A stretch of DNA of 64,000 bases from Mobula hypostoma (taxonomy: Eukaryota). The notes under the pieces were generated by a model. The model had not been told where the DNA came from and made no database searches. It saw only the letters and a list, made by a program, of their open reading frames with translations. The DNA is taken from the NCBI RefSeq assembly GCF_963921235.1, contig NC_086097.1, positions 53,260,001 through 53,324,000 on the forward strand. The letters run 5' to 3'. The position numbers and the translations under genes were made by a program. Shown piece by piece: positions 1 through 63,963 of this stretch (positions within the stretch are counted from its first letter, which is position 1; every line of letters begins with the position of its first letter).

Positions 1-1720
1 CCGTAGTTCAGTCCCTCCTCACCTACATCCGCGATACATCCCATGCCCTCCAGCTCTTCAATAACTTCCAGTTCCCCGGTCCCAACCGCTTCATTTTTAC
101 TATGGATGTCCAATTCTTATACACCTCCGCTCCCCATCAAGAAGGCCTCAAAGCCCTCCGCTACTTCCTGGATAATGGACCTCACCAGTTCCCCACCACC
201 ACTACCCTCCTCCGGTTGGCGGAACTGGTTCTCACACTTAATAACTTCTTGTTTGGCTCTTCCCACTTTCTTCAGAATAAGGGTGTAGCTATGGGAACTC
301 GCATGGGACCCAGCTACGCCTGCCTCTTCGTTGGTTATGTGGAACAGTCTGTGCTCCAAACCTATTCTGGTACTGCTCCCCAACTTTTCCTTCGATACAT
401 TGACGACTACATTGGTGCTGCTTCCTGCACCCATGCTGAGCTCGTCAATTTCATCGACTTTACTTCAAACTTCCACCCAGCCCTCAAATTCACTTGGTCT
501 ATCTCTGACACTTCTCTCCCCTTTCTCGATGTCTCGGTCTCCATCTCTGGAGACAGACTGTCCACTGACATCTTCTACAAGCCCATTGACTCTCATAACT
601 ACCTCGACTATACCTCTTCCCACCCCGCCACATGCAAAAATGCCACTCCCTATTCCCAGTTCCTCCGTCTCCGCCGCATCTGCTCCGAGGATGAGGTTTT
701 CCGTTCCAGGACATCTCAAATGTCTTCTTTGTTCAAGGATCGTGGTTTCCCTTCTGCTGTCATCAATGATGCCCTCACCCGCATCTCCTCCATTTCCCGC
801 ACTTCGGCTCTCACCCCATCCTCCCGCCACCACAACAGGGACAGAGTTCCCCCTGTCCTCACCTACCATCCCACCAGCCTCCAGATCCAGCACATTATCC
901 TCCGCAACTTTCAACAGGACCCCACCACTAAGCACATCTTTCCCTCTCCACCCCTCTCTGCTTTCCACAGGGATCCATCCCTCCGCGACTCACTTATCCG
1001 CACGTCCATCCCTATGGATCTCCCACCCGGCACTTATCCCTGTAAGCGTAAGTGCTACACCTGTCCCTACACCTCGTCTCTTGCCACCATTCAGGGCCCC
1101 AAACAGTCCTTCCAGTGAGGCAACACTTCACTTGTGAATCTTTTGGGGTCATCTATTGCATCCCGTGCGGCCTCCTCTACATCGGTGAAACCTGACGCAG
1201 ATTGGGGGACCGCTTCATCGAGCACCTCCACTCCGTCCGCCAAAACAGACAGGATCTCCCGGTAGCCACCCACTTCAACTCTGCTTCCCATTCCCATTCA
1301 GATATGTCCATACATGGCCTCCTCTACTGCCATGATGAGGCTAAACTCAGGTAGGAGCAGCAACACCTCATATACCATCTAGGTAGTCTCCAGCCCCTTG
1401 GTATGAACATAGAATTCTCCAACTTCCGGTAATTCCCTCCCCCTCCCTTCCTCTATCCCTATTTCACATCACCTCCCTCATAGTTCCGCCTCCTTGCACT
1501 ACTTTCGCATTGTTCTCCTGCCAATCACCTCCCTGCTTCCCCTCCTCCACCCCTTTGTCTTTCAAATTACTGTTTTTTTTCCCCAACTACCAGCATTCTT
1601 CAAACCCTCCCCAAAGTTCTTCCTTCAGTCCTGACGACGGGTTTCGGCCCGAAACGTCGACTAATCTTTTCAACTGATGCTGACTGACCTGCTGAGTTCC
1701 TCCAGAGCATTGTGAATGTT
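1..1720 (+). mobile_element. Penelope-like retroelement (RT + GIY-YIG endonuclease remnant + 3' UTR), cut by the window edge
   Basis: ORF 102-1118 has PLE RT motifs MDVxxLYT, GVAMGTRMGPSYACLF, LRYIDD, LPFLDV, YLDYTSSHP. It is followed by a disrupted GIY-YIG segment (GVIYCI..CGLLYIGET*RRLGDRFIEH), a pyrimidine-rich UTR and a hammerhead. Confidence 0.92.
1627..1662 (+). ncRNA. Minimal type I hammerhead ribozyme (PLE-associated), core intact
   Basis: AGTC CTGACGA C GGG tttcgg CCC GAAACGTC GACT: stem I AGTC/GACT, CUGANGA core, stem II GGG/CCC, GAAA, GUC cleavage triplet. Confidence 0.85.
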
Positions 1721-2086
1721 TTATTCATTTCTGTAGAGCATCCCACCACCCCCCCGCCCTGACTGCACCCACATCAGACCTGGACAGGAGCCTATACACA
1801 AACACATTTTTACTTCTGCGCTTCAGGTTCTTAAGGATCTATTGTTGCCTTCTAATCACTATTAATTTTGACCTTGCAACAGAAGTTATAGACTGCAGAA
1901 CAGGGCCTTTTGAGATACATCCATAGAGCCAAATGAACACAATTTTATGAATGTATCATTCTATGACACTGAGATTACAATCCTGAGAGGTTATTTAATA
2001 ACAGAGCACAGTTAGTGTGCTGTAGAGAAGTGGGAACCAGATCTGTAGTCTTTGTACTGATTTTCATTGCAAGTATCTGCCGTCAC

Positions 2087-2860
2087 AATAAAGTGGCCAC
2101 TTTATTAGGTACAGGACATACCTAATATGTCCTGTACCACATAAAGTGGCTATTGAGTGTATGTTCGTGGTCTTCTGCAGCCCATCCACTTCAAGGTTTG
2201 ACGTGTTGTGTGTTCACAGATGCTCTTCCGCACACCAGTGTTGTAATGTGTGGTTATTTGAGTTAGGTGCCTTCTTGTCTTCTTCAACCAGTTTGGCCAT
2301 TCTTTCCTGGCCTCTCTGATTAACAAAGCATTTTCACTCACAGAACTGCTGTTCATTGATTGTGTTTTTTTAAAAAATAAACTCTGGAGAATGTTATGTG
2401 TGAAAATCCCAGGCGATCAGCAGTCTGAGATATTCAGACCACCCTGTCCGGCACCAACAATTATTCCACGGTCAAAGTCGCTTAGATCACATTTCTACAC
2501 CATATTGATAAATGGCCAAACCAGTCCTTTAACTTTTCCACCTAGCACTTCCCAGTTTCTTACTTTGTCCTGTTCCCCCCACCCAGCTTCACCCATCATC
2601 TTCTAGCTTGCTGTTCTTCTTCTCCACCCACCTTCTTATACTGGCATCTTGCCCCTTTCTTTCCAGTCCTGATGAAGCGTCTCAGCCCAAAATGTGACTG
2701 TTTATTCATTTTCATAGATGCTACCTGACCTGCTGAGTTCCTCCTACATTTTGTGTGCATTGACCTGAACCTCTTGACCATGTCTGCATGCTCTTACACA
2801 TTAAGTTACTACTACATTGAGTTGCTGATTGGCTGTTTAGACATTTGTATTAATGAGCAT
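2087..2860 (-). mobile_element. Tc1/mariner deletion derivative, interrupted by a PLE tail
   Basis: Minus ORF 2150-2356 TQITTHYNTGVRKSICEHTTRQTLKWMG..RRP resembles the Tc1 transposase HTH region. TIR-like gtggccactttattaggtaca inverted repeats lie at 2087-2150. Confidence 0.7.
2540..2770 (+). mobile_element. Old PLE 3' tail with degenerate hammerhead (2664-2700)
   Basis: cagtc ctgatga agcg tctcag ccc aaaatgt gactg ... gatgctacctgacctgctgagttcctcc, homologous to 1625-1715. Confidence 0.75.
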
Positions 2861-3879
2861 ATCTGATGCAAGCAACATTTCAGAAAACCCCCCCATCCAC
2901 TCCAGTAAGTGCAAAAAGTTTCTCTTAAAGGACTATTAGATGAGGACATTTGTAGCATGTGAATATCCTGAAGGCTGGACAACTGCTGTATTGTAGGAAT
3001 ATGCAGTGGGATACCACTGGGTTCAAATGACCACTGGTGCTAAGTTGTAAAGCTAAAGTGATTTAAATTCAAGAATCGTATACCGAACAGTTAAATTGAC
3101 AATATATTTAAATGAGATTGAGAGATGAAATATATTACAAATACATGCGCAAGTTGTACTCAAAAGGAAATGGACTGAAGTACTGAAAGACAAATCATAT
3201 TGTTACTGGCGCATATTTTTTATTGGGAGCACCAAAATGCCTTGGTCCTAATGATAAGAACAAGTTCTTAAGACTTATTTAACTAACTTAAAACCAGGCA
3301 CAAGTTTAAAAAGTAAAATGGAATAGCTATGATTTAAGTGAACAGCACAACAGATTTGTACTCTGATGAGCTTCCTGCGTTCTGTTGAGTTTTTAAAACA
3401 AATAACATTACGAGCACTGAAAAGTTTGAAGATACAGAGAATGGCAGATGCTGAGTCTAGAATAGAAACAGAAATCTGGAAAAAAGTAAGAAGTTACATT
3501 TGAGAGGGAGCTGGGAAGATTGCCAGTATATAGCAGTACATGGGGTGGGATTAGGACAGAGACTGGTAGCTGATATGTGTAGATTTAGGTTGAGTGAAAA
3601 ATCAAATGTAATTGAACCTTAGGTAAAGTAACCCTGAGAATCTACTCTTCCACAAGGTTAGCTAACGTATCAAAAGTTAGTAAGCACTCACAATAAAGGA
3701 AATACTGAGGGGAAAATATTTCCTGCTGCAAAACACTTCATTAGAGAATTACACAAAATTTGGGATTCATTTACAGACATCCTTCAGACAATTTATGAAG
3801 CCACTTATTTTACTTCCTTTATTACTGTTTTTCTTCGTTCAAATATGCTTCAGCTACTATTGGACCCTGTGATTTACTG

Positions 3880-4612
3880 TTTGATGGTGTTTTTTTGGGT
3901 CAAGTGAGCAGTCTGGCGCTTTGCAGTCTCTGAGGGTGTTTGATAAGGTTTTGAGCGGAGTGTGCAGCCTGGAGACAGGGCGCGAGCCCATGATCAACTC
4001 CATTTCTCCCCAATGTAAATGTTGAGGAAAATTGAAATCAGTGAGGTCAAGAGCAGGTGGTGAACCGGTGTTCAGCGCTGACTGCCTGTGAGTGGTATCT
4101 ATATCTATCTCACTCTCACACTCACTCACTCACTCACACACACACACTTGCTGCTTCTGGAGGAAGGTGCCTGCATTCAATTGGTCTCTCACTCAATGCT
4201 GCTGGAGTCCATGGGTCTTGCGAAAGGTTTAATTGATGCAGTTTGTAGACAGGTGTCCATGTTATGATGTGTTTCTGGTTGTTTTCTTTTTTTTGTTGCT
4301 ATTTTGATCGGGGCAGACGGGCTCTGCGGCCTGCGTTCAAGGAACAACACAGTGCTAGATTGAACTGAAAGGAGCCAGAACTGAACATGCTTGGATTGTT
4401 TTGTTGACTTTGTGGTTTGGTCTTTTATATTGTGTTTTTGCTCTTTTTTGCCGTTCGCACAATTTTTCTTTTTTTTTGCAAGTTGGCGGTTTGTTTTTTT
4501 TCTTTGAATGGATTCCATGGTTTCTTGGTTTTGTGGCTGTCTGTGGGAAGAATCTCAGGGTTGTATATTGCATGCATACTTTGATAATAAATGTACTTTG
4601 AATCCCTTTGAA
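3880..4612 (+). mobile_element. Unclassified retroposon 3' tail (dispersed repeat), includes a (CA)/(CTCA) microsatellite
   Basis: Ends gaatctcagggttg...atactttgataataaatgtactttgaatc. Inverted homologues occur at 24145-24400 and 37843-38060. Confidence 0.55.
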
Positions 4613-4950
4613 TTAAAATTCTCTTTATCAATACAGATCTGTGACTACATCCTCAAAGCATTAGTAGGTGCAAAGGCCAGTTACTTTTAGTTCCAATGCT
4701 GCACCTGCAACTATGCTTCAAAGAACAGAAGTTAAGATACTTGTTGCTACTGCTGTTATATTCTGTGGAAAATAGCACATTCATTAAAATGCATTCTAAT
4801 AAGAACTTCGATCAACCAGCACCTTTTTCAAAGAGAAGATATCCAGTAGGATAAAAAAAATGTAGGTAGCACAAATTGGAAATTCAGCAGATTTCCTTAT
4901 CCAAATCCAAATTAACATGTTCCACATGAAATGCACAAGGCTATCAAATA

Positions 4951-5751
4951 CCATGGATTCCAGTTAATTGGGACACACCAGGCCATGTCCATTTTGGTCC
5001 AATTCAGTGGCTGCTCCAGTTAGCCAAAGTTTCATGGAAACAGTTAAAAAGATATACAAAAAAAAAGACAAACAACTGTTTAACTGTGTAACAAATTATG
5101 TAATTAAATGACATATAGAACAAATTATAATGCAACTAATATTACTACAGTACTATAAAGCTGTTTATTAGTTCCTAATAGTTATCAACGGAAGAATTAA
5201 TCCAGTGTATTTTGCTGTGTTCTCTTGATTGACTAAGTGCAGATATCTAGTGCAGACAATTGCGTCCTCTAAATCCTTCATTTTCATTGTAACATTCAAG
5301 CTGATTGTTGGTACTTTTAAAATTCTTTGTAGTTCTTAACTTCCAGTAGTGAAATCATTTCATTTACACTCCCAGCTGTTTCTGGCATCTCCGAGGCTCA
5401 ATGCTTGAAACCACAGTGAGTGAAACAGTTCTGAATTGTCTTACTGCTTATTTCTCGTCAACTATCAGTGACAAAAATCACAGATTTTTGAACACAAACA
5501 CATGCAACTAATGCTATTTAAAAAACTGTTCACTCTAAGCACGGTATAGTGTCTAACAACCACACAAGTGCACACGATTGATCTAGTTAGAAACTGTTCA
5601 TCAAGTCTCCTGTCCCAATTAAGCAGCATGGTGTCCCAAATAAATACAGGAAATTCCTGCTATTTTCTCGATTAGATTTTGTTCTTCAAGTGTTGTCCCA
5701 AATAAGCAGCTGCCCCGATTTACCAATGGCCAAATTAACCAGAATCCACTG
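4951..5751. mobile_element. Non-autonomous DNA transposon (MITE-like, probably pogo/Tc1 superfamily), copy 1
   Basis: Terminal inverted repeats c(c)atggattccagttaattgg ... caaattaaccagaatccactg, with TA on the left. Homologous copies at 23027-23840 and 26330-26831. Confidence 0.75.
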
Positions 5752-8160
5752 CATTTCCTTTTCACTAGGATGCCTTACCAGAAACAAAAAATTTCACAAC
5801 CTTAGAAGTTCCCTGTCTTTACTCTACACTAAATTTTGCATCATATGTATATATTGTCAATGACTATGCAAGTAGATAATCAACAATAAATACGTATTTT
5901 GTAAAAGCAAGGCCATACCAGATGAAAAAGCTTTTGTGCTGAAATGATTTCGCTGACCACAATCATATCTTTTCAGTCCATCAATTAGAAACTGCATCTT
6001 TATAAAAGAAATGATTGATTGTAGCTTCTTGGCTTCAAGCCCTAAATTGCCACACCCATCTGTAAAACTTGAATGAGCTTAATGGTTCATGGAAGTTTTC
6101 AAGTTGGTTTAACAGAAACTTTCAGCTCAGCTCAACATTACTCAAAATTGGAATTCAGTTTTTCTAAAAATGAATGCGATTCAGGAAATGTGGTACTTAA
6201 CCTACATACTGAGGGTCATAGATAAATTGTAATTGACAAATGCTAGCTAGTTTTGACTAAAAGCTATTATTAATGTTAAACTGTTAAAATTAGGCAATAC
6301 CCTCAAACTAATTTTCAACTGGCAGGGAGAAAAATGCTTTCAATTTGTTGCTGAGATTATGGATACTAATGCACATCTCTTTTTAAGATGCAATTTGCAA
6401 TAAAGTATTCAACATCTGGGGAAAATCAATGTAAGTATGAAGGTAAAATTGCAAGACCCCATTTTTACGCTGTAACTTCTTTGTTGGTTTTGTGAATGTT
6501 ATGAAAACAGCAATGTCATGGCTGACTTACCATGCTGCCAATGTCAGCAATAAAGCTGTCAGAGAACTACTTACTTAAACCCCCACGCAAAACGAGTTTA
6601 CTGTATCATGTGTTTTTGTCAGTGAGAAGTAACCAGAGCGTCTTTACTTAGCACTTTGGCTGCACAACTGTTACTTATTCCTTATCAACCCATACCCGAA
6701 CATCAGTAGTGTCTAATTGCTTTATGGCACAAACTGCTTCAGTTGCAAAGCTGCAGCAAACAGTACTGAGGACTATGTGATTATTAGCAATCAGACCCAT
6801 TTCCCACCTATGATGGAAGGTGGTTTATGAAAATTATCTTCTGCTCTGAAAACAATTCCAGTAAGCAGATATCTGTTGCCAGTAAAAATCAAAGGCGGTC
6901 TTTGTGTAGTGAAAGGTTGCCTGACTTCCATGAGATAAAATTTGAGATCAGTTTAGATAATCTGAATTACAAAGGCGGTCCAAAGCCTAATAAGTGATGG
7001 AATTGATCAAACACCACAAACATGCATATTGTGGGTATGCAAAGAGTAGGACAGAACTGTCTGGGCTCTCGCACAACAACTCACAAGGAGAAAGGATTTT
7101 AAATTTCAGGATTATTCTACTTGAACTAGATTTCCAATCTCAGGATCCATGGCAGCTTGGTAGATTTCGTAAGACAGTGAAAAATGTTGATATTTTGTGA
7201 AGCAAGAGGCAGTCCTAGATCATGCATGGAGAATAACTGTCTAAGGAAAATAAAGCCCAGTTTGCATAGTCTGCAATTTCTAATATACACATTACCTCAG
7301 GAACTACAGGCTGGATACTGTACTGCTAAAGAAAGATTGTTCAGTTAGGCAGTAGATCCTTAACTGCCTTAGACAGCACTGATCATTTTGTACAAAATAC
7401 CTCATGCACATAGCGATACTTTATGAAAAATTTCAAAAGGGGAACTTTAGTTAGCTTTTGGTTTCCTTTAAAAGTTCTGGTTTAACAACTTGATGCATAC
7501 AGAGCTGCAAGTGCCAGTAGTGACAATATCAGACCAGCAGGCGAACACTCAGTCAACGATGGAGTTTAACTCAATAAAAATGCCTGGGCTTAGATAAACT
7601 CAGAATATAAAGATCTTTCGATTTATGATGAGTGAAATGAAAGCTTGTAAAAATTCTGCACCTGCCGATGCCATAGCAAGGATCCAAGAGCAAAGGATTT
7701 ACTGTTTTTCATTGGTCACTGTTGTTTTGAAAATCTTCACATTAAACTTCCATTTTAAAATAAATGGATCATCATGCATTAAAATTTATTTGAAAGAATG
7801 TAAAAAGGCACAAATATAATTTAAAGCTAATTATGCTTGCCTTTCTTTTATGCTCTCAACCATAGCAAAGCTATTTGGTTTCTCTCTAATATGGACATCA
7901 ACTGAACCGCAAGAGCAAGATCTTATTTGTAATAGGCTCTCAGAATGCAAGTACTGAGCTGATCTCTTTATCTGGTGTTTCTCTGGAACTACTGTACATG
8001 AACAATGATGTATAAAACTGACTGAAAACTTTGGTACAATAGGAGGTGGCAGATGAAGCCCAGAATACACTGTGTACATCAGGAAAATTGCAACCTAGGA
8101 CGCCTCGGCTCTTAATGTTCACATCTTTTTCTCTAATAGTCGGAGAATACTGCTACAGAC

Positions 8161-8301
8161 CTGATCCTGGAGTGATTAATGGTCCCTCCAACTCCAATGC
8201 CTCATCTTCACCTTGGTCTTTTTCGTCCGTCTTCCGTTTTTTCTTTTTTGTTGGATCTTTAGGTTTTCTCAGCAGCGAGAGTTCTTCAGGATGCCTTATA
8301 T
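8161..8301 (-). CDS. FERMT2: Kindlin-2 next coding exon (F1 polybasic loop), 141 nt; not shown as such in the ORF track
   Basis: Manual translation gives (N)IRHPEELSLLRKPKDPTKKKKRKTDEKDQGEDEALELEGPLITPGS(G). Acceptor ttctaacag| and donor |gtctgt; phase 1-1, in frame with the 20930-21163 exon (F-N-I-R-H-P junction). Confidence 0.95.
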
Positions 8302-8612
8302 CTGTTAGAACAGAGAAGGAAACTTAGAAACTGACGAGACCTTCAGTCAAAAAATTAACAACAAACAGTGCTCATAAAAAGCCTACTGAGAGTGGTAATT
8401 TGTGGAATTTAAGTCCATATACATTTAAACATGCGCTGCTCGATGCCCAAAAATACGACCACTTAGCCATTAGAAGGTCAGTGACCTGTTGTTTTACTAA
8501 GATACCCAATTCAAATTATTTCCCATGGCGGAATGAACATGTCCTTCCACCCCTTCCACAGGGATTCAAAAACCATTTCATTTAGGTTATGGTGACTGTT
8601 ATACATAAAGTA

Positions 8613-9953
8613 CAGGCGCCCCCTGCTTTTCGAACGTTTGCTTTACGAAACCTCGCTGTTACGAAAGACCTACATTAGTTACCTGTTTTCGTTAACAGAA
8701 GGCATTTTCACTGTTACGCAAAAAGGCAGTGCGCGCCCTGAGCAGCTGCGCCTCCCCTGGAACTGCATTCTCGCCGGCATTGCTTAAACACGTGCCTGTG
8801 AGCAGCCGTTAGCAAGATGAGTTCTAAGGTATCGGAAAAGCCTAAAAGAGCTCGTAAAGGTGTTACATTTAGCGTAAAACTAGACATAATTAAGTGTTTC
8901 GATTGTGGTGAACGAAGTAAGGACAAAGTGAGTTTGGCTTCTGGAAGTTGACAAAGATGATGTTGAAAAGGTTTTGGCATCCCATGACCAAGAACTGATA
9001 GATGAAGAGCTGATGCAATTGGAAGAGGAAAGGATAACAACCGAAACCAAATGCAGTAGTGAACGGACCGAAAGTGAAGTCGTCCAGGAACTGAATGTGA
9101 AGCAGCTGCATGAGATTTTCGCTGCAATGATTGCAGAAAAGTACAACTTTAATTTTGAAAGGGTACGTTGGTTTAGGGCATATTTGCAAGATGGTTTGAG
9201 TGCTTACAAAGAACTGTATGATAGAAAAATGCGTGAGGCTAAGCAGTCAAGCATACTGTTCTTTTTCAAGCCTTCCACATCAGAGGCGATTGCCGATTGT
9301 GTCGTCTCTGATCTGGGCCAACATTTACGTGCCGGGCAGCACCTAATTAATTAGCTTATTTATTTCGGCTTTTTTCTTAAAGACGTGCTGGATGCGTCCC
9401 AGCTACCACTGCACGCTTCGCGGATCGGTATCGGTCGGTGGCCCAGAGGGTGGGGACCATCGTACCACCCCAACCTCCGACGACTCAGCCTAACACACCA
9501 TCATCAGTGTGCTCGGCGCTGTCTTCCCGATTCCGGTAAGTGATACTACACTGTATATACATTATTTCTACTTTATATAGGCTGTGTATTTTTGTGTAAT
9601 TTGGTATGATTTGGCAGCCTCATAGCTTAAAGGTTACTGGAGAGCGAGTTTCTGCTGAGAGCGCTTGCTTGAGATTTTCGCTACGGCGAACAGTGCGGTA
9701 ATGCTTGTAGAAAAGTATTTCTACTTTATATAGGCTGTGTATTTATCATATCGTTCATGCTTTTACTATATGTTACTGTTCTTTTAGGTTTTATGTGTTA
9801 TTTGGCATGATTTGGTAGGTTATTTTTGGGCCTGCAAACACTCACAAATTTCTCCCATATAAATAAATGGTAATTGCTTCTTCGCTTTACGACATTCAGG
9901 CTTACGAACCGTTTCATAGGAACGCTCTACCTTCGGATGGTGGGGGAAAACTG
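8613..9953 (+). mobile_element. pogo/Tigger internally deleted transposon
   Basis: TA-caggcgcccc...gggggaaaactg-TA. N-terminal MSSKVSEKPKRARKGVTFSVKLDIIK (psq HTH) is fused to the Tigger C-terminus SHDQELIDEELMQLEE...KQSSILFFFK. Confidence 0.88.
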
Positions 9954-11330: not shown

Positions 11331-11470
11331 GCAAACATGAAAAAATCTGCAGATGCTGGAAATCCAAAGCAACACACATAAAATGCTGGAGGAACTCAGA
11401 AGGCCAGGCAGCATCTATGGAAATGAGTAAACAGTCGGTGTTTCAGGCTGAGACCCTTCATCGGGACTGT
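11331..11470 (-). mobile_element. Short PLE 3' end with inactivated hammerhead (11431-11470)
   Basis: Minus strand acagtc CCGATGA aggg tctcag cct GAAACACC gactgt (core U4C, GUC changed to ACC), followed by the shared tail ...ccagcatctgcagattt. Confidence 0.8.
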
Positions 11471-20256: not shown

Positions 20257-20444
20257 CGCAAACACGAGGAAATCTGCAGATGCTGGAATTTCGGATCTCC
20301 CCCTCCCCCTCCACTTTCACATCTCTTACTATCTCTTCTTTCAGTTAGTCCTGATGAAGGGTCTCGGCACGAAACGTCGACTGTACCTCTTCCTATAGAT
20401 GCTGCCTGGCCTGCTGCGTTCACCAGCAATTTTTAATGTGTGTT
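20257..20444 (+). mobile_element. Short PLE insertion with inverted 3'-terminal piece
   Basis: TSD gctaagcttaacta (20243-20256 and 20445-20458). 20257-20292 is the reverse complement of the PLE extreme 3' end; the remainder is forward UTR with a hammerhead. Confidence 0.88.
20347..20382 (+). ncRNA. Minimal hammerhead ribozyme, core intact, one stem II mismatch
   Basis: AGTC CTGATGA AGGG tctcgg CAC GAAACGTC GACT. Confidence 0.78.
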
Positions 20445-20929
20445 GCTAAGCTTAACTATCTGTTTTTTTCCCCCCAAGAAAGGTTGGCTAAAAATTCATT
20501 CTCTACACAGAAGAGCACTGGCAATTCTACAACTTACTGATCATGCTAACGTATCGGGAGCTATAGATTTAATAATTTTTATGCAGGGGTTCTCTGAGAC
20601 CTGAAAATTATTTCAAGGATTTCTCTAGGGCAAAATGATTGAGAAATCTGGTCTAGACCAATTTCATGATTTTTACATTTAACAGTGTGACCACAGTTGA
20701 CAGAGACTCCTGCCCTATTTATTCAATGAAAGTCAGTATTAATTACCTCACCATTAACCTCGTGGAAAACCTGAGTCACTATGGATGAACTGATCAAGTT
20801 TCTCCAGCAATTCAACTCCAGAAACAACATGATGACGGAGTTTTAAATAAAATGTCAAAATTAGCTGTAAATTGCACCAATTAAAAACAGTCGGACAGAA
20901 TAAAGAGGCAGTGTAATTCTGGTACTCAC

Positions 20930-21163
20930 TGAAAGTCTTGGAAATGTCAGAGACAGCTTTGAAGACTCTGTCCGAGAAATTGACCTTGACCTTCACCATC
21001 TTCATGTTAGGCAGCTGGAGGCGAAGTACCTTGTGCTGGGGTGTGAACATCAGTTTAGCATCAGCTTGCACACCATACTTGTCCAATGTCCAATGGGTTT
21101 TTAGAAGCCAGGTTTTCTTCTTTTCCCACCACAAGGCATGATCTGACCAGTCTTTTTTCACAT
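20930..21163 (-). CDS. FERMT2: Kindlin-2 (fermitin family member 2) internal coding exon, F0/F1 FERM region, 234 nt
   Basis: Translates as (D)[77 protein letters not shown], near-identical to vertebrate kindlin-2 as I recall it. Acceptor ttttgcag| and donor |gtgagt; phase 1-1. Confidence 0.96.
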
Positions 21164-25046: not shown

Positions 25047-25939
25047 CAGTCGGCCCTCCTTATCCGCGAGTTCCACATGTGCGGACTCAACCAACCGCGA
25101 TTCGGGAAAACCCGGAAGTTCTCTCTCCAGCACTCGTTGTTCGAGCATTGTTTGCCTCACACCTCGTTTGTTCGCTACGTTATTTCTGTGAAAAAATGGC
25201 TCCTAAAAAGCAGCTACTGGTAAAAGCAGTTCCTCAAAGGCTAAGAGGGAGCGTAAAGTGCTATCTCCCACCGAGAAATTAGAAATATTAGATCTTTTGA
25301 AAAGTGGCATGTTGCATTCTGAAGTGGGCTTTAAGGTCGGTAAGAACGAATCGAGCATTTGCACAATAAAGCAGAAAGAAACTGAAATTCGTGGAAGTGT
25401 TAGTGCTAGGGATGGCTGGCTGGCTATGTAAAGTGCTACAGCCTCAAGAACTTAAAGTTCACGGGAGAATTGGCATCGGCGTTCCCAGAAGAGCTACGGT
25501 GGTTGCGTCTGTACTGAACATGTACATACTATTTTTCCTTGTCATTATTCCCTAAACAATACAGTGTAACAACTATTTACATAGCATTTACGTTGTATTA
25601 GGTATTATAAGTCAACAGAACAGAAAAACTGCGGGCGGCGGGTCCTGTGCTGCCCTGGGTCCTAAAGTCCATCGGCACTGAGACAGGTTAAATAAGGTCC
25701 GGAGCTACCCCGGGTCCTAAAGTCCACCCGCACTGAGACAGGTTAAATAAGGTCCGGAGCTGCCCTGGGTCCTAAAGTCCATCGGCACTGAGACAGGTTA
25801 AATAAGGTCCGGAGCTACCCCGGGTCCTAAAGTCCACCCGCACTGAGACAGGTTAAATAAGGGACTTGAGCATCCGCGTTTTTTGGTATCCGCGGGGGGG
25901 TCTCCGAACCAATCCCTTGCGGATAAGGAGGGCTGACTG
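25047..25939 (+). mobile_element. pogo/Tigger non-autonomous element (second family)
   Basis: TA TSD and 21-bp TIR cagtcggccctccttatccgc / gcggataaggagggctgactg. N-terminal transposase remnant MAPKKQ...EKLEILDLLKSG...GKNESSICTIK. Confidence 0.88.
25649..25862. repeat. 55-bp tandem repeat, ~4 units in ABAB order
   Basis: Units start at 25649, 25704, 25759 and 25814. A = gctgccctgggtcctaaagtccatcggcactgagacaggttaaataaggtccgga; B differs at gctaccccg and ccacccgc. Confidence 0.95.
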
Positions 25940-30358: not shown

Positions 30359-32190
30359 TAATGTTCCCTCTAATTTTTAGTAGTCAGTGTGTGCAAAAAT
30401 CTTATGCTGTGCTATCTTTTTTCCTGTGACAAAAGTATGTGTGCACTGAATGCACACATGGGAGTTTATGTAGGTCTACAAAATATTTGACATAAAACTG
30501 CAGAGAATAACAACAAAATAACATACATATTTAAGTCACACACAAAAAAAAATGCTGGTGAACACAGCAGGCCAGGCAGCATCTCTAGGAAGCGGTACAG
30601 TCGACGTTTCGGGCCGAGATCTTTCGTCAGGGCTAACTGAAGGAACAGCTAGTAAGAGATTTGACAGTGGGAGGGGGAGGGGGAGATCCGAAATGATAGG
30701 AGAAGACAGGAGAGGGAGGGATGGAGCCAAGAGCTGGAAAGTTGATTGGCAAAAGGGATATGAGGCTGGAGAAGGGACAGGAAGCCTAGGGAGAAAGAAA
30801 GGGGGGGGGAAGCCCAGAGGATGGGCAAGGAGCTATAGTGAGAGGGACAGAGGGAGAAAAAAAGAGAGAAAAGGGGAAAGAATAAATAAATAAATAAAGG
30901 CTGGGGTACGAAGGGGAGGAGGGGCATTAACGGAAGTTAGAGTAGTCAATGTTCATGCCATCAGGTTGGAGATACTTAATTTTTTATCATATTTAAGTCA
31001 CTCAGTTATTTTCTCTCTCATGTCTTTGGCATTTACCCATTCTTTGTAAACTCTATCTCGACTAATAGAACTTCCGTCCCATTGATAGCTTTTGATTCTC
31101 ATTAACATATCCAAATGACAGTCACCTAAATGGTTTCTCAGCTTGTTTTTGAGCTGTTTCCTCAGGCTAAAGCCTCGCTCACAGTCCGCACTAGACGCAA
31201 GAAAGGTTCCCCCAATGTCCATCAACTGTGCAAAGTCGCAAAACTGTTCATTTTGAAGTACAAATGCCACCATTTGAGCAAAGTTTGAAATTAGTTTGGA
31301 TTTACTTTTTTCTTGTATGGAAAATTTGAAATCATTAAATTGTCTAACTATTACAATATTTTCAGCTAGAAAATTAAGATATTTTAGACATAAGGCATTA
31401 ACCTGTTCATTGCCAAATGTGAAGTCACAATCTGCAATTGTGGAGAAATCCATTCTTGTACCTCAACTTTGATCACCTCTGGGTTTGATCGTTTTCTCTC
31501 TCGCTCATCTGCACTCAACCCTAACATGCATCGCACTCCTGTAACGGGTAATGACGGGTTCTGTTGCCTGAGCTTTTGTACACCATCCAAATGTGATTTA
31601 CTTGTCAAATGACACTTCAAAAAGTCAAGTTTCCAAATATCATCCCACTTCTTTCCACTAGCGAATTCTCCAGCAACTTTCGCATCACGACAATACAAAC
31701 AGATAACTCCAGTTTCCGAATCATTCATAAATATTTCTCATAGCTGAACATTCATGATCTCATGAGCTTTCGGTGTAACAGTTTCTACTATTTTGTTAAG
31801 CCATTCAACTTTAAACAAATTTGCAGTTCTTTTGCGCTTCATGCCCTTCGCTTCTTTTGAATTCGACATAGTGAATCAATATTTTTTTCCAATAAAAACT
31901 TAGTGAGCTATCTACAGGATTTGAAACAGATCTTTGTAAACTTTATGATATGAACATTGTCCGCCAAATATGGCTGCCGCCATGATGCAGCCGTACAAAC
32001 CGGAACAGGAAAGGCGAGGTGACGTAAATTAGTGACGTGTATTGTGGTATTTGAAAAACCGACCAACTAGTTAACAGAAACAGTTAGCTAAAGGATTATT
32101 ATCAATAAGTATAACTATTAACTACAACATTATTTTAGGTAACTAACCTTTTGTGTGCGCACACACGCGCACAGCTTAGAGGGAACTATG
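30359..32190 (-). mobile_element. hAT (Tip100/ZNF862-like) internally deleted transposon
   Basis: Perfect 8-bp TSD ctaccaag (30351-30358 and 32191-32198) and TIR tgttccctctaa/ttagagggaac. The minus strand has an N-terminal zinc finger (CLYC...HLTSKSH) and a hATC dimerisation motif (SSADCERGFS..KNKLRN.L..LDMLMRI). Confidence 0.9.
30540..30972 (-). mobile_element. PLE 3' fragment nested in hAT, with damaged hammerhead (30599-30634)
   Basis: Flanking duplication catatttaagtcac (30526-30539 and 30988-31001). Minus strand reads AGCC CTGACGA AAGA tctcgg CCC GAAACGTC GACT. Confidence 0.85.
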
Positions 32191-38695: not shown

Positions 38696-40260
38696 AAGGA
38701 GCAAAGGAAGCTGAAGCATGACATGTTTATTAGCATTACTATATTGAAAAATTCCTAACAGGTGTATTAGAGAATTTGAAGTAGATTTCCTTAAGTGATG
38801 CCTTCCATAACCCAGACTGCCCCTGTCTTTGTAAATGTTGTAAATTTTATTTTTGAACTCAGTAATGTCTGTTCCTTCCTGATTGTATGAATAAAAAAAG
38901 GAGCCACTATGAAGTTTTCTGGGAAAAAAAGTTCCTTTAATTTACGGAAAGCCTTGCTGTAAACTGTATTCTCTACCTCTGACATTTGAGAATGACCTCT
39001 TCTTGCTTGGACCACTTGTTAATTTGCTGCTTTTTAGTTTAGACAATTAAAATAATGATTTATTTTCTCTCCTTTGATTTCCTTAATCTTATGTCAGTTA
39101 TTAAGACCTAGCAGTTAAAAACTGAAACTTAAATTCAAGATTGTTTGTCATTTCCATGTTAGGATGCTCTCCACTGTGAATCTGTAGGAGGATGTGAGTA
39201 TAGATGTACATAGTAATGTGTACAGGTGGCCACTGTTTTCCGAACGTTCGCTTTACGACACCTCGCTGTTACGAAAGACCTACATTAGTTACCTGTTTTC
39301 GCTAACAGAAGGTGTTTTCACTGTTATTAAAAAAGGCAGCGCACGCCCGAACAGCCAAGCTCCTTCCCCGGAACTGCATTCTAGCCGCCATTGCTTAAAC
39401 ACGTGCTTTATCTCAATTTATTTTGTGCATCCGTTAGCAGGATGAGTTCTAAGGTATTGGAAAAGCCTAAAAGTGCTCATAAGGGTGTTACACTTAGCGT
39501 AAAGCTAGACATAATTAAGCGTTTCGATCGTGGTGAACGAAGTAAGACATTGTCCACACGTTGAACTTGCCTATATCCACCATTTGCACTATCAATGCAG
39601 ACAGAAAGAATTCTGAAAGCTGCCGATGTTACTGTTGGCTCTGCTCGTAGCAAAGTGGTCTCTCTTAGTTGGCATCCAATAACAGATAAAATGAAAAGTC
39701 TATTACTTGACTGGATTGATGTGTGTACAAAGCATGGCGTTCCGTTAAGTTTTCTTATACTTAAGGAGAAATCAGTCAGTCTTTTTAATATGCTGAAACA
39801 GAAAGCACTGGACGATGGTGATGAAAGTGTTGCGAAAGTGGAATTTAAAGGTAGTCATGGGTGGTTTGATTGGTTTCTGAGGCGAGGGCAGCTTCATAGT
39901 TTAATGTTTACCGGACAGAGTGCTTCGGCTGATATTGAAGCTGCTGACGAGTTCCAAGCAGAACTGAAGAAAATAATTACAGAAGGGGGTTATTCATATA
40001 AGCAAGTGTTTAACTGTGACAAAACTGCAATTTATTGGAGTCTTCCTGATTCCGGTAAGTGAAACTACACTGTACATACATTATTTCTACTTTATATAGG
40101 CAGTGTATTTTTATGTGTTATTTGGTATGATTTGGCAGCTTCATAGCTTAAAGGTTACTGGAGAGCGTGTTTCTGCCAAGAGCGCTTGCGCCAAGAGTGC
40201 TGCCGTGAGATTTTCGCTGTGCTAGACAGTGCTGTAGAAAAGTATTTCTACTTTATATAG

Positions 40261-40882
40261 GCAAACAACAGGAATTCTGCAGGTGCTGGAAATTCAAGCA
40301 ACACACATCAAAGTTGCTGGTGAACGCAGCAGGCCAGGCAGCATCTCTAGGAAGAGGTACAGTCGACGTTTCAGGCCGAGACCCTTCGTCTCCTCTACTG
40401 TAAAGATGAAGCCACACTCAGGTTGGAGGAACAACACCTTATATTCCATCTGGGTAGCCTCCAACCTGATGGCATGAACATCAACTTCTTTAACTTCCGC
40501 TAATGCCCCACCTCCCCCTCGTACCCTATCTGTTATCGATTTTTATACACACATTCTTTCTCTCACTCTCCTTTTTCTCCCTCTGACTATACCCCTTGCC
40601 CATCCTCTGGGTGCCCCCCGTCTTTCTCCCCGGACCTCCTGTCCCGTGATCCTCTCGTATCCCCTTTGCCAATCACCTGTCCAGCTCTTGGCTCCATCCC
40701 TCCCCCTCCTGTCTTCTCCTATCATTTTGGATCTCCCCCTCCCCCTCCCACTTTGAAATCTCTTACTCACTCTTCCTTCAGTTAGTCCTGACGAAGGGTC
40801 TCGGCCTGAAACGTCGACTGTACCTCTTCCTAGAGATGCTGCCTGGCCTGCTGCGTTCACCAGCAACTTTGATGTGTGTTGC
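40261..40882 (+). mobile_element. PLE insertion with inverted pseudo-LTR structure, nested in Tigger
   Basis: TSD tctactttatataggc (40247-40262 and 40883-40898). 40261-40390 is an inverted 3' end with a truncated hammerhead; 40391-40882 is forward (GIY-YIG end, UTR, hammerhead). Confidence 0.9.
40784..40819 (+). ncRNA. Minimal hammerhead ribozyme, intact
   Basis: AGTC CTGACGA AGGG tctcgg CCT GAAACGTC GACT. Confidence 0.85.
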
Positions 40883-41136
40883 TCTACTTTATATAGGCTG
40901 TGTATTTATCATATCATTCCTGCTTTTACTATATGTTACTGTTTTTTTTAGGTTTTATGTTTTACTTGGCATGATTTTGTAGGTTATTTTTGGGTCTGGG
41001 AACGCTCTAAAATTTTTCCCATATTAATAAATGGTAATTGCTTATTCACTTTCCGACATTCCGGCTTATGAACCGTTTCACAGGAACGCTCAGCCTTTGG
41101 ATAGCGGGGAAACCTGTATTTAATATCTCAGTAATA

Positions 41137-43057: not shown

Positions 43058-43059
43058 GT

Positions 43060-50750: not shown

Positions 50751-50788
50751 GCCTCAAAGTAGAAGAAATACCAAGGTCATGAACTAGC

Positions 50789-51740
50789 AATGATCTGGAT
50801 GATAATGTGGTAAATTGGATCAGCAAATTTGCTGATGATACAAAGATTGGAGGTGTAGTAGACAGTGAGGAAGGTTTTCAGAGCCTGCAGAGGGACTTGG
50901 ATCAGCTGGAAAAATGGGCTAAAAAATGGCAGATGGAGTTTAATACAGACAAGAGTGAGCTATTGCACGTTGGAAGGACAAACCAAGGTAGAACATACAG
51001 GGTTAATGGTAAGGCACTGAGGAGTGCAGTCGAACAGAGGGATCTGGGAATACAGATAAAAAATTCCCTAAAAGTGGCGTCACAAGTAGATAGGGTCGTA
51101 AAGAGAGCTTTTGGTACATTGGCCTTTATTAATCAAAGTATTGAGTATAAGAGCTGGAATGTTATTATGAGGTTGTATAAGGCATTGGTGAGGCCGAATC
51201 TGGAGTATTGTGTTCAGTTTTGGTCACCAAATTACAGGAAGGATATAAATAAGGTTGAAAGAGTGCAGAGAAGGTTTACAAGGATGTTGCCAGGACTTGA
51301 GAAACTCAGTTACAGAGAAAGGTTGAATAGGTTAGGACTTTATTCCCTGGAGCGTAGAAGAATGAGGGGAGATTTGATAGAGGTATATAAAATTATGATG
51401 GGTATAGATAGAGTGAATGCAAGCAGGCTTTTTCCACTGAGGCAAGGGGAGAAAAAAACCAGAGGACATGGGTTAAGGGTGAGGGGGGAAAAGTTTAAAG
51501 GGAACATTAGGGGGGGCTTCTTCATACAGAGAGTGGTGGGAGTATGGAATGAGCAGCCAGATGAGGTGGTAAATGCGGGTTCTTTATTAACATTTAAGAA
51601 TAAATTGGACAGATACATGGATGGGAGGTGTATGGAGGGATATGGTCCGTGTGTAGGTCAGTGGGACTAGTCAGAAAATGGTTCGGCACAGCCAAGAAGG
51701 GCCAAAAGGCCTGTTTCTGTGCTGTGGTTTCTATGGTTTC
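50789..51740 (+). mobile_element. Young 5'-truncated CR1 with an uninterrupted 287-codon RT C-terminus
   Basis: ORF 50807-51670: ISKFADDTKIGG...LEYCVQFWSP...RRMRGDLIEVYKI. Ends in a ttctatggtttc tail. Confidence 0.93.
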
Positions 51741-52880: not shown

Positions 52881-53056
52881 CAACAGGAATTCTGCAGATG
52901 CTGGAAATTCAAGCAACACACATCAAAGTTGCTGGTGAACGCAGCAGGCCAGGCAGCATCTCGAGGAAGAGGTACAGTCGACGTTTCAGGCCGAGACCCT
53001 TCGCCAGGACTAACTGAAGGAAGAGTTAGTGAAAGATTTGAAAGTGGGAGGGGGAA
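52881..53056 (-). mobile_element. Short PLE 3' end with core-mutant hammerhead (52976-53011)
   Basis: Minus strand AGTC CTGGCGA AGGG tctcgg CCT GAAACGTC GACT (A6G), otherwise near-identical to 40261-40390 and 40740-40880. Confidence 0.88.
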
Positions 53057-53174
53057 TCCAGTCGTTCGAAGATGCCACAGCTCAAGTCTCAGGTGCTTTG
53101 GTCTTTTGTATGCCCATTTGCTTTTGCCTTGCTATCGGCAATGGCATCCGCAAACACCTAGCCTCTCCGATTAA

Positions 53175-53650: not shown

Positions 53651-53654
53651 TGAT

Positions 53655-56006: not shown

Positions 56007-56019
56007 CATGGAACATGCA

Positions 56020-56522: not shown

Positions 56523-58053
56523 ACAAAATACTCTGCAGATGCTGGGGTCAAAGCAACACTCACAACACGCTGGAGGAACTCAGCGGGTTAGGCAGCATCT
56601 GTGGAAAAGATCGGTCGACGTTTCAGGCGGGAACCCTTCGTCAGGACTGAAGAGGGAAAGGGCAGAGGCCCTATAAAGAAGGTGGGGGGAGGGTGGGAAG
56701 GAGAAGGCTGGTAGGTTCCAGGTGAAAAACCAGTAAGGGGAAAGATAAAGGGGTGGGGGAGGGGAGGCAGGGAGGTGATAGGCAGGAAAGGTGAAGAAAG
56801 AATAGGGGAAAACACAGTGGGTAGTAGAAGGAGGTGGAACCATGAGGGAGGTGATAGGCAGCTGGGGGAGGGGGCAGAGTGACATAGGGATAGAGGAAGG
56901 GAGGAGGAGGGAATTACCGGAAGTTGGAGAATTCTATGTTCATACCAAGGGGCTGGAGACTACCTAGATGGTATATGAGGTGTTGCTCCTCCAACCTGAG
57001 TTTAGCCTCTTCATGGCAGTAGAGGAGGCCATGTATGGACATATCTGAATGGGAATGGGAAGCAGAGTTGAAGTGGGTGGCAATTGGGAGATCTGTCTGT
57101 TTTGGCGGACGGAGCGGAGGTGCTCGACGAAGCGGTCCCCCAATCTACGTCGGGTTTCACCGATGTAGAGGAGGCCGCACTAGGAGCACCGGATGCAATA
57201 GATGACCCCAACAGACTCACAAGTGAAGCGTTGCCTCACTTGGAAGGACTGTTTGGGGCCCTGAATGGTGGCAAGAGAGGTGGTGTAGGGACAGGTGTAG
57301 CACTTACGCTTACAGAGATAAGTACCGGGTGGGAGATCCGTGGGGAGGGACGTGTGGACCAGGGAGTCGCAGAAGGACTGATCCCTGCGGAAAGCAGAGG
57401 GGGTGGAGAGGGAAAGATATGCTTAGTGGTGGGGTCCTGTTGAAGGTGGCGGAAGTTGCGGAGGATAATGTGCTGGATCTGGAGGCTGGTGGGGTGGTAG
57501 GTGAGGACAAGGGGAACTCTGTCCCTGTTGTGGTGGCGGGAGGATGGGGTGAGAGCCGAAGTGTGGGAAATGGAGGAGATGCATGTGAGGGCATCATTGA
57601 TGACAGCAGAAGGGAAACCACGATCCTTAAAGAAAGGGGACATTTGAGATGTCCTGGAACGGAAAACCTCATCCTCGGAGCAGATGCGGCGGAGACGGAG
57701 GAACTGGGAATAGGGAATGGCATTTTTGCATGTGGCGGGGTGGGAAGAGGTATAGTCGAGGTAGTTATGAGAGTCAGTGGGCTTGTAGAAGATGTCAGTG
57801 GACAGTCTGTCTCCAGAGATGGAGACCGAGAGATCAAGAAAGGGGAGAGAAGTGTCCGAGATAGACCAAGTGAATTTGAGGGCTGGGTGGAAGTTAGAAG
57901 TAAAGTCGGTGAAATTGACGAGCTCAGCATGGGTGTAGGAAGCAGCACCAATGTAGTCGATGTACCGAGGGAAAAGTTGGGAGTTGGGGAGCAGTACCAG
58001 AATAGGTTTGGAGCACAGACTGTTCCACATAACCAACGAAGAGGCAGGCGTAG
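56523..58053 (-). mobile_element. 5'-truncated PLE (RT C-half, GIY-YIG, UTR)
   Basis: 13-bp TSD ggtgataataaac (56510-56522 and 58059-58071). The coding part is near-identical to 315-1440. Confidence 0.93.
56611..56650 (-). ncRNA. Minimal hammerhead ribozyme, core intact, sense to FERMT2
   Basis: TCAGTC CTGACGA AGGG ttcccg CCT GAAACGTC GACCGA. Confidence 0.82.
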
Positions 58054-58404: not shown

Positions 58405-58525
58405 AGAGATTGCAGATGCTGATACATGGAGGCAAAAGAAAATTCTGCTGGATGAACACAGCAGGTCAATTGACATTTGTGGAGGCAAAGGATAGTGCAT
58501 GTTTTTGGTCAAGACCCTGCAGGAT
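58405..58525 (-). mobile_element. Very old PLE tail remnant
   Basis: tgcagatgctg...tgctggatgaacacagcaggtca...tgtttttggtcaagaccct; the hammerhead core is no longer recognisable. Confidence 0.5.
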
Positions 58526-58879
58526 GTCTGTAATTGCAAAGCTACCCAGAGGAGTATTAAATTTCCCCAATTCAATGATTGAAATCATGAATTCTGTTTC
58601 AATTAACTTTATATTAAAAACATTAATATTCAAGAAAAATATGTAAGGATAGCCTGTTTGTTCTTTTCCTAAGGTTTATAATTTCTGCACAAATAACTTT
58701 GGGATTAAAATTGTGCAAGTCTCTATATCATAGGAATCATTTCCATGGAACATGGGATCTGTACATGCAGGACTGGCTGCACCTTAACCAGAACCAGACT
58801 AACTTCCTCGTACGGAGGTTGGCTGGTGCTGCTGGGCACTTTAAACTGAGTTGGCAAGAATAGGGACAAGCACATTGAG

Positions 58880-60100: not shown

Positions 60101-60229
60101 GAAGAATTAGTTGGCAGGCTCAGTAGGCAGAAGAGGCGGGTGAGTGCATATCAAGTGAATGCACAGTTATTTTAATTCGAGGAGTCCATCTAGCAAGATA
60201 AATGAATTTAATTAGCACAGGGGGTTATG

Positions 60230-61030
60230 AATTTGTTGGCATCCCTGAGAAGGGGCAGGACTGGCAAATCAACATCCCAGGGTGCAAAATATTCAGGCAA
60301 GACAGGGAGGGGAGTAAAAGAGGACTACACAATTAGCCAATGCATTTTGTCAGTACTGAAGAGACGATATCCTAGGTAGGTCGTCTAGTTGGAGGAAATA
60401 GGGAGATCCTTAATGAATGATGAGAGGGACCTTGATGTTTGTGAGGGCAGAGTAAAGCAGTGTTATATGCTCATCTGCTAGAACAAGTCAAGGTTAAGGT
60501 GATGATGTGCTGAAACTTTTGAAAAACGTTAGGATAGACAAGCCCTGGGGTTCGACAGGATACACTCCAGGTTATTATGGTAAGTGAGCGAAGACTGCTG
60601 TACCTCTGGCTATGATCACAGGCCAGAGGAGAAGTACCAGACAATTGGGAGGTGGCATATGCAATTCCTTTGTTCAAAAAAGGGAGTAGGAATAATCCTG
60701 AGAATTATAGATGAATGAGCCTTGCAACCTTTTTTCACCTTCCTAATTTCTTTTTTAAGTGCCTCCTTACATTCTTTTGTACCTATGATGGGACTTGCTC
60801 ATCTTTAATTCGCTGTACTTGTGATATTTTTCAAATTTTCATTTTATCCATCTCTCAACAATGTTTATATCCAGGGTTCCCTAAACTTGTTACTCTTGAT
60901 TTTTTACCCTCGTAGAAACATGGAAATTTAGGATCACCCTTATAGCTTCTAGCTCCAGACACAGATTGTTATCCCTAATGGGGCCCTTCTCTTTCTCTGG
61001 TTATTCTTTTGTCCTTGGTATACTTATATG
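60230..61030. mobile_element. Fragmented CR1 pieces in both orientations
   Basis: QDWQINIPGCKIFRQDREGSKRG (endonuclease) and EVPDNWEVAYAIPLFKKGSRNNPENYR on the plus strand; minus-strand remnants at 60720-61030. Confidence 0.65.
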
Positions 61031-61134
61031 AAACATTAATCCTGCCTGTCAATACAGGAGAAGGTGAGTTTAAGGAGTGAGTGAAGGAGTGAGTGGAGGA
61101 GTGAGGAAAGGGCTGGCAAGAAAGCAGTGGATCC

Positions 61135-62925: not shown

Positions 62926-63824
62926 TTCTAAAACTTTTCTCCACATCAGGAAGCAGACAAGAAGGACAAAGATTTAAGATAATGGTTAGGATAATGGGAA
63001 AGAGATTCCAAAGGGAACTCTCCTCCCCGCCTCCAAGAGAGTGGCATGCAGCTGGTATGCACTGCCAAAGAGTTTGATTGAGAGAGGGGTGAGGATTGCT
63101 GATAGCATTTGTGTAACCCCTAGATGAGAACTTGAATCACTTAGGCATAGAAGAATGTGGACCAAGTGCTGGAAGACAGAATGCCACCAAAGAGTTGCCG
63201 TTGCTCAGCATGGGTGTGTCGGCCCGAATGGTTCACATCCATGCAGTATGTCTTTATGACTTCAACACTAAAACAAGTTCATAAACTAGCAAGGATCTGT
63301 TCATTAACACTGGAAAGTATTGCCGGAATTACACACACATAAGAATGACAAATAGCTGCGCTGCTGTAATCTGTAACCTTTCCTGAACAGGAAGTGACTT
63401 GCACTGTTAGGCATGTTTTACCTCTCAGCAGCAGTATTCCTGGAGGAAGCAGCAAATTTGGCTGCCAGAGCTTTTCCTGTGTAATATGCAATCCTGACCA
63501 TAATAGCTTTAAGATTTCCCATCCCCCAATAGCGACCACTAAAGTATTTCAGGATTAACCTTCTCAAACGTAAAGAAAACTCTCAATGACCTGCTGCTGT
63601 TTTTCCTCACTGCATTAATATCTATTCAGCTGTGTAGTTAATTTGCAACAGAGTACTTTTAGCTTGCTACCTCCTTGAAAGATAGATTGTGGGAAGGAGG
63701 TAGGGGGCTACAAGAAGGCTATTTTAAAATCAGAAGTTGTTGAACAGCTTGTATGTAAAGTGGTTCAATTTGTACATGGGATAGATTCACAGGATATCAT
63801 CAGAACCCAGTGCATGCAAGTATG

Positions 63825-63963
63825 ACGAAGGGTCCTGACGAAGGGTCTCAACCCGAAACGTCGACTGTACCTCTTCCTAGAGATGCTGCCTGGTCTGCTG
63901 CGTTCACCAGCAACTATGATGTGTGTTGCTTGAATTTCCAGCATCTGCAGAATTCCTCGTGTT
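63825..63963 (+). mobile_element. Short PLE 3' end starting at the hammerhead
   Basis: TSD tgcatgcaagtatg/tgcatgcaattatg (63811-63824 and 63964-63977) and a full terminal tail ending gaattcctcgtgtttgc. Confidence 0.88.
63831..63866 (+). ncRNA. Minimal hammerhead ribozyme, core intact
   Basis: GGTC CTGACGA AGGG tctcaa CCC GAAACGTC GACT. Confidence 0.8.

Follow-up and report, generated by a model that had tools for sequence, protein, structure and literature searches.

We identified ten minimal hammerhead ribozyme motifs, and an eleventh, heavily decayed copy, in a 64,000-nucleotide (nt) stretch of the genome of the ray Mobula hypostoma (contig NC_086097.1, positions 53,260,001 to 53,324,000; hereafter the window), which covers parts of three introns of the gene FERMT2. 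From their sequence, the ten motifs read as 3' ends of a Penelope-like element (PLE) that carries an already-known kind of minimal hammerhead. We consider the intronic copies, with a probability of about 0.87, to be neutral and likely non-cutting relics of this abundant PLE, the motif acting, if at all, in the element's own multi-copy ribonucleoprotein. Following published work on PLEs, the motif would function only in the multi-copy RNA of the element, dimerised through an ACGU palindrome and helped by the PLE protein. A lone intronic copy would be unable to close stem III and is predicted to fold into an off-state hairpin that hides the cut site, and each inserted copy would then decay by CpG deamination. 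Behind this reading stand the anatomy of the element and the density, strand distribution and CpG decay of its copies, with predicted folding and the PLE literature supplying the mechanism.

All ten motifs lie within 2 nt of where an earlier note on this DNA had placed them, on the strands it gave (minus-strand copies being quoted by their low coordinate), and all ten align to the 3' end of natural PLE copies bearing an open reading frame (ORF), as that note had proposed. The intact form comprises stem I AGUC, core CUGAYGA, one extra base, stem II GGGU/GCCY with a 4-nt loop, GAAA-C-G-U-C and stem I GACU. The note's statement that the same fold occurs at all ten sites stands for part of the set. 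The full core (CUGANGA ... GAAA ... UH) is kept in six of the ten (1627+, 20347+, 30599-, 40784+, 56611- and 63831+), core together with both stems, each of 3 bp or more, in four (1627+, 40784+, 63831+ and 56611-), and the remaining copies are damaged in core, stems or both. Positions within the motif follow the standard hammerhead numbering. The copies are:

1627..1662, plus strand: minimal hammerhead motif with core and stems intact and extra base C; antisense to FERMT2
2665..2700, plus strand: decayed motif with G12A, C15.2U, a cut-site deletion and a broken stem II; antisense to FERMT2
11433..11468, minus strand: decayed motif with U4C, G16.2A and U16.1C (GU16 to AC); sole sense copy of its 12.6-kb intron
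20347..20382, plus strand: motif with intact core and a stem II mismatch, inside a 160-nt PLE end (20288-20450); antisense
30599..30634, minus strand: motif whose core is intact and whose stems I and II are both broken, inside a PLE end (30530-30971); sense
40361-40390, minus strand: truncated motif lacking the 5' strand of stem I and C3-U4; sense
40784..40819, plus strand: intact motif of the youngest and commonest form (C7, G10.1-U11.1); antisense
52976..53011, minus strand: motif with an A6G core change and an intact cut-site strand, inside a PLE end (52885-53055); sense
56613..56648, minus strand: motif with intact core and stem II, stem I of 3 bp followed by a mismatch; the only near-intact sense copy within the window
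58446..58521, minus strand: heavily decayed eleventh copy, found by profile match; sense
63831..63866, plus strand: intact motif at the extreme 5' edge of a PLE end of about 135 nt with tail; antisense

The eleventh copy, overlooked in the earlier note, was found with a profile built from the ten motifs (E 5e-6); recovery of the ten themselves by that profile is circular. Reversed-sequence controls gave 0 matches in every motif search, so the motifs stand far above chance. Ten of 16 matches to a loose core regular expression fell outside the PLE family and lacked stems, and were discarded as chance. The check with a hammerhead model that the note had suggested, run as an Rfam scan, returned no hammerhead among the 4 matches in the window at E up to 5. 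The 5' ends of three of the ten copies fall at or just within the motif start (11470 minus, 63831 plus and 40390). The copy at 63831 opens with a short direct duplication of its own core and the start of stem II (TGACGAAGGGTC twice; 63820-63845, plus strand), at the 5' edge of the insertion.

The carrier element is represented in the window by the following longer insertions:

1..1720, plus strand: 5'-truncated Neptune-like PLE with reverse transcriptase (RT), CX3CXXC linker, GIY-YIG domain with stops and 3' untranslated region; antisense to FERMT2
40262..40890, no single strand: one head-to-head PLE insertion, with a minus arm (40262-40390; tail, truncated motif) joined at 40390 to a plus arm (40390-40890)
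56552..58053, minus strand: 5'-truncated PLE, 96-97% like the PLE at 1-1720 over the longest arms; sense to FERMT2

The PLE at 1-1720 extends 623 nt past the left edge of the window; a 137-nt inverted arm carrying a further motif is joined to it there. The hammerhead of this PLE lies about 200 nt past the stop codon. The head-to-head insertion has a tail on one arm and is flanked by a 12-nt duplication, CTTTATATAGGC. Because 40361- and 40784+ are its two arms, with a common junction at 40390, the ten motifs represent nine insertions. Elsewhere in the genome, a locus on C1 near 3.27 Mb (L153) holds a natural frame of 584 amino acids (aa) with RT followed by a C-terminal GIY-YIG domain (RVT_1 E 1e-4 and GIY-YIG E 1e-3, both below Pfam's cut-offs), and locus L155 gives a GIY-YIG match at E 2e-4, also below the cut-off. 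The linker between RT and endonuclease reads CKRKCYTC or CKRNKCYTC, of the CX2-5CXXC type described for Neptune-clade PLEs in PMC8557442, and suggests, as a placement by linker, that the carrier belongs to that clade. The family shows 5' truncation, adjoining inverted copies and an optional tail of 30-40 bp. The order of RT and GIY-YIG, the inverted partners, the tail and the 5' truncation together mark the carrier as an endonuclease-bearing PLE.

On C1, the first 100 intact copies listed include 15 pairs of neighbours less than 3 kb apart, nine of them head-to-head, two tail-to-tail and four on the same strand. We considered the four same-strand pairs as tandems of pseudo-long terminal repeats around an ORF (pLTR-ORF-pLTR) and rejected this, their ends being only 78-94% alike and a PLE ORF lying between the ends solely at L153; they look like separate or nested insertions. 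No full-length pLTR-ORF-pLTR copy was found among six loci inspected. At L153 itself (3866-6095, minus strand), two same-strand motifs 2.1 kb apart flank the 584-aa frame, and since the ends are only 78% alike, one subfamily seems to have been placed at the 5' end of another.

The density of about one motif per 6 kb, to which the earlier note had drawn attention, proved accurate as a figure and ordinary for this genome. We sampled the intragenic DNA of FERMT1-3 and of myosin and dynein genes (33 genes, 1,831,835 bases, strand taken from exon order) and found 307 copies, one per 5.97 kb. From the 277 copies outside FERMT2, 10.6 would be expected in 64 kb, compared with 11 in the window. This rules out an enrichment specific to FERMT2; the copies in its introns are ordinary because the genes of this ray hold roughly one per 6 kb. 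If the sampled genes are typical, the genome holds roughly 580,000 copies by extrapolation. Across the 3.48-Gb genome, there are 45,139 exact matches to a 34-nt pattern, degenerate at two places, and 67,653 matches to a core-plus-stems pattern, each with 0 matches in the reversed control.

Dispersal of the motifs through FERMT2 introns was confirmed. The gene lies on the minus strand, however, so five of the ten motifs (1627, 2664, 20347, 40784 and 63831) are antisense to it. Two exons fall in the window:

8157..8300, minus strand: FERMT2 exon, about aa 131-176, bounds approximate
20930..21163, minus strand: FERMT2 exon, about aa 53-130 (Kindlin_2_N), bounds approximate; matched part 100% identical to Mobula FERMT2

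The first coding exon lies 12 kb past the right end of the window, and the 55-kb intron that follows it holds the sense copies 30599, 40361, 52976, 58446-58521 and 56611. The sense copy 11431 is alone in its 12.6-kb intron and is dead. Among the sense copies in the window only 56611 passes our descriptor, with a 3-bp stem I. Two further descriptor-intact sense copies lie beyond the window in the same 55-kb intron, at window +70,788 and +74,987 (L031:6754-6795 and L032:953-994, both minus strand), 4.2 kb apart. FERMT2 was read over 153 kb and holds 30 copies there: 20 are sense, with 4 of them intact, and 10 are antisense, with 3 intact.

If sense copies were cut to the detriment of their host genes, they might be expected to be rarer than antisense ones. 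No depletion of sense copies was seen among the 33 genes (152 sense vs 155 antisense; 95% confidence interval (CI) of the sense share 0.44-0.55), nor among their intact copies (20 sense vs 18 antisense; CI 0.36-0.69). Of the copies spanning the motif, 31 of 101 in sense and 28 of 100 in antisense orientation have kept an intact core (Fisher p 0.76), and genes with at least two intact sense copies are as frequent as those with at least two intact antisense copies (3/33 each). The motif is rich in CpGs, and those at catalytic positions are lost as fast as those of the loop, with no sign of selection for or against activity: G12A occurs in 50/194 copies, C15.2T in 56/193 and G16.2A in 59/188, and the two CpG positions of loop II are lost in 48/197 and 58/190. 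Covariation in stems I and II, whose absence the earlier note had named as evidence against its proposal, was sought in 110 of 137 motif-spanning copies, the 27 with insertions or deletions being left out. The stems pair in 85% of cells, and no covariation was detected, two-sided change at 4 of 9 pairs being equalled in 350 of 500 shuffles. Such a lack is expected for decaying copies of a few masters, and so it speaks against function of the copies and not of the master. Balanced strands, CpG loss and missing covariation are what neutral decay of copies made by a few master elements would produce.

The earlier assignment of the motifs to the dimer-type minimal type I hammerheads of PLE 3' ends was well founded, since the core, the extra base after A9, the missing stem III, the ACGU palindrome and the PLE context all match the account in PMC4209133. 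Helix III is absent; positions 15.2-16.2, whose complementarity the descriptor requires, pair as C-G in 37 of the 38 intact copies and as U-A in one. An unpaired extra base between A9 and G10.1, which the descriptor does not demand, is present in 30 of 30 listed descriptor-intact copies. The 10.1-11.1 pair is G-C in 10 and G-U in 28 of the 38; the site is a CpG, yet the commonest identical form has U. The minimal hammerheads (min-HHR) described in PLE terminal repeats, including those of the fish elements Xena, Poseidon and Neptune (Cervera and De la Pena 2014, PMC4209133), occur mostly as dispersed single truncated copies and sometimes as close opposite-strand pairs. The ray family shares this arrangement, along with the type I core, palindromic 15.2-16.2, lack of helix III, extra base after A9 and helix I of 4-5 bp. 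It differs in helix II, which has 4 bp in the ray (G10.1-U11.1 in the youngest form) and 7-8 bp in the Schistosoma families, and in its 67,653 intact copies, where coelacanth has about 4,000 and Xenopus 9,000, counts obtained by different search methods; cartilaginous fish are not named in the passages of that paper on which this comparison draws. A Schistosoma minimal motif is reported there to show no cleavage as a monomer and a low level as a dimer or trimer.

The Anolis Poseidon element PAc (Frangieh et al. 2024, PMC11167929), another vertebrate PLE, likewise has a hammerhead with stems I and II within its terminal repeat, and its insertions bear an optional tail. Unlike the ray element, which has a Neptune-type linker and is known from sequence alone, its motif overlaps the ORF start and has been assayed; as reported, it does not cleave without the PLE protein, cleavage is not needed for insertion in vitro, and no RNA-seq ends fall at the cut site. 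Small PLE variants that cleave as dimers also have a very short palindromic stem III region, but they are aided by a tandem layout, according to a review (PMC6765202), whereas the ray copies lie kilobases apart in host introns. Animal non-LTR (long terminal repeat) retrozymes likewise carry type I hammerheads, some of them dimer-dependent, are related to PLEs and occur in the single cartilaginous fish sampled (PMC7229834; bioRxiv 10.64898/2026.07.22.740005). They reach up to 120,000 copies in the axolotl (PMC7229834), and one of nine Xenopus tandem dimers was reported active in vitro, the other eight showing no cleavage (bioRxiv 10.64898/2026.07.22.740005). Retrozymes form tandem, non-coding arrays in which every unit carries a motif, whereas the ray motifs are dispersed ends of an ORF-bearing element; a retrozyme identity was rejected, there being no head-to-tail tandem units and the same-strand copies in the window lying 1 to 23 kb apart. 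The amniote RECK, CTCL and DTNB hammerheads are also of type I and sit within host-gene introns, but they are conserved across species and have tertiary contacts (PMC6155905), in contrast to the interchangeable ray copies, which occur in both orientations and show neutral CpG decay. A domesticated hammerhead of the RECK type was therefore rejected as well, helix III being absent and the catalytic CpGs decaying like those of the loop. Both the ribozyme kind and the transposon class are already known, and the ray family is a further case. We found no publication on this ray family in the literature searched, although most subscription papers and Repbase, which were outside reach, may describe it. 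Small dimer-cleaving hammerhead variants of PLEs, which may include sequences from cartilaginous fish, were reportedly described by Lunse, Weinberg and Breaker (RNA Biol 14:1499).

Folding predictions suggest why a single copy may be silent. With ViennaRNA, a lone copy is predicted to form a hairpin in which core bases G5-A6-Y7-G8 pair with C15.2-G16.2-U16.1-C17, so that core and cut site are buried. This is the predicted minimum-energy fold for intact C7 and U7 copies, and not for a natural A7 copy. Because the palindrome A15.1-C15.2-G16.2-U16.1 has no loop, helix III would form only between two copies. The double hammerhead is predicted to lie 7.6-13.4 kcal/mol above two monomers for C7/U7 copies (stem II taken as 4 bp), 4.3 kcal/mol above for the A7 copy and about 10 kcal/mol above for sense pairs from FERMT2, and an inactive extended duplex is predicted 11-22 kcal/mol below the double hammerhead. 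These energies agree in direction with the experiments on the Schistosoma, anole and Xenopus relatives.

The same predictions raise the possibility, which we regard as a minority one, that the family reached its high copy number through a weakened motif, so that sense intronic copies would be harmless by design and not by decay. With C7 the core is complementary to the cut site, with U11.1 stem II is weaker, and A6C is found in one subfamily; C7 is present in 33 of the 38 intact copies and U11.1, as the G10.1-U11.1 wobble, in 28, and the hairpin and the larger dimer penalty (8-13 vs 4.3 kcal/mol) go with C7/U7 and not with A7. Among otherwise intact copies genome-wide, A6C is found in 1,144 vs 712 for A6G plus A6T, and the change lowers activity in a phage hammerhead (PMC3088659); the subfamily seems to have multiplied while carrying a core change reported as activity-lowering. 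Yet the lock is a prediction, and because C7 is part of a CpG, how often it occurs also depends on the age of the copies. Such self-locking is compatible with the copies being relics and does not exclude it. The subfamily with A6C (CUGCYGA) is an older one with its own flanks (for example L095:1887-1928 and L076:1991-2032, both plus strand) and makes up 24 of 201 sampled copies.

The earlier note had envisaged that same-strand copies could pair in cis as double hammerheads, damaged copies acting as partners or substrates. In such a model, copies in one intron would exchange strands of stem I, join at their ACGU palindromes and cleave the FERMT2 pre-mRNA as it is made. The dimer geometry is nested and formally possible, and the 55-kb intron does contain three descriptor-intact sense copies (window +74,987, +70,788 and 56,644). 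Furthermore, 52976-, with its intact cut-site strand, lies 3.6 kb from 56611-, which in principle allows one active site, and dimers of PLE minimal hammerheads have been reported to cleave at a low level (PMC4209133). Half of the listed copies are antisense, however, among them both members of the pair 40784/63831 that had been suggested for trial, so that this pair is absent from FERMT2 pre-mRNA. Partners would also meet at low concentration, with rough effective values of about 7e-7 M for a separation of 3.6 kb and 4e-8 M for 18 kb, to form an active fold predicted about 10 kcal/mol above the monomers. The 33 genes show no strand or pair bias, and eight of nine Xenopus tandem dimers failed to cleave in vitro (bioRxiv 10.64898/2026.07.22.740005). 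Strand, decay, covariation, density and folding (8-13 kcal/mol above monomers) thus leave the idea unsupported; double-hammerhead cleavage in FERMT2 pre-mRNA appears unlikely, and we give the scenario as a whole very little credence.

Several observations weigh against treating the copies as inert relics. The strand test is weak for intact copies (n = 38), excluding only strong depletion, and is blind to harmless cleavage. The folding energies omit tertiary contacts, Mg2+ and proteins, and the controls did not include a known active dimer. In the first 137 copies, variation is a little lower at non-CpG core sites (66/1086) than in the flank downstream (186/2138), a difference that could stem from selection acting on master elements, from flanks that differ between subfamilies, or from ascertainment. 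In the window, 4 copies are pattern-intact vs 1.25 expected (Poisson p 0.04, a post hoc comparison of insertions that cluster), and the 153 kb of FERMT2 hold 7 intact copies vs 31 in 1.68 Mb elsewhere. The sampled bases come mostly from dynein and myosin genes, some of them narrowly expressed. In addition, Xenopus retrozymes are reported to be rarer than expected in introns (2026 preprint), and co-transcriptional cleavage of an intron need not block splicing, the exons staying tethered (PMC4410947, citing Dye 2006).

This last point bears on a further alternative, in which the presence of PLE protein (in the germ line or embryo) would let copies cut now and then, whether in trans or in cis, at no cost to fitness. 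With exons tethered to the polymerase, no strand bias would arise; the anole hammerhead is protein-assisted (PMC11167929), and 67,653 intact copies could provide plentiful partners in nuclear RNA. The predicted off-state hairpin and inactive duplex are far more stable, though, and no reads end at the cut site in the anole RNA-seq as reported in PMC11167929; we find this account doubtful. More speculatively, the PLE protein might unlock the hairpin, so that introns with two close intact copies, such as the FERMT2 pair 4.2 kb apart, would be cut co-transcriptionally and transposon activity would act as a genome-wide switch on pre-mRNA integrity. We regard this as a long shot. Neutral relics of an abundant PLE remain our preferred explanation of the FERMT2 motifs.

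The 67,653 intact copies, within a total extrapolated to roughly 580,000 and equally tolerated in both intron orientations, constitute a large natural dataset. It bears on whether PLE hammerheads cut in vivo and suggests that dispersed copies do little. Were pairing in cis to be true, it would represent a new route by which a transposon acts on host pre-mRNA, and the ray genome would be an ideal testing ground.

We also observed remnants of other mobile elements in the region. The broken frames of a Gypsy-type LTR retrotransposon, protease-, RT- and integrase-like by eye, lie on the minus strand of a FERMT2 intron 6-9 kb to the left of the window (L034, about 700-4100). Remnants of Tc5/Tigger-type DNA transposons (HTH_Tnp_Tc5) occur at 39565-40062 on the plus strand and at 8610-9750, and the PLE insertion at 40262-40890 lies within or beside one of them. 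A tandem array with a 55-nt period occupies 25641-25915. Lastly, a 295-aa frame at 50783-51670 on the plus strand has a weak RVT_1 match and related pieces elsewhere in the window; it is likely the 3' end of a long interspersed nuclear element of the CR1 type.

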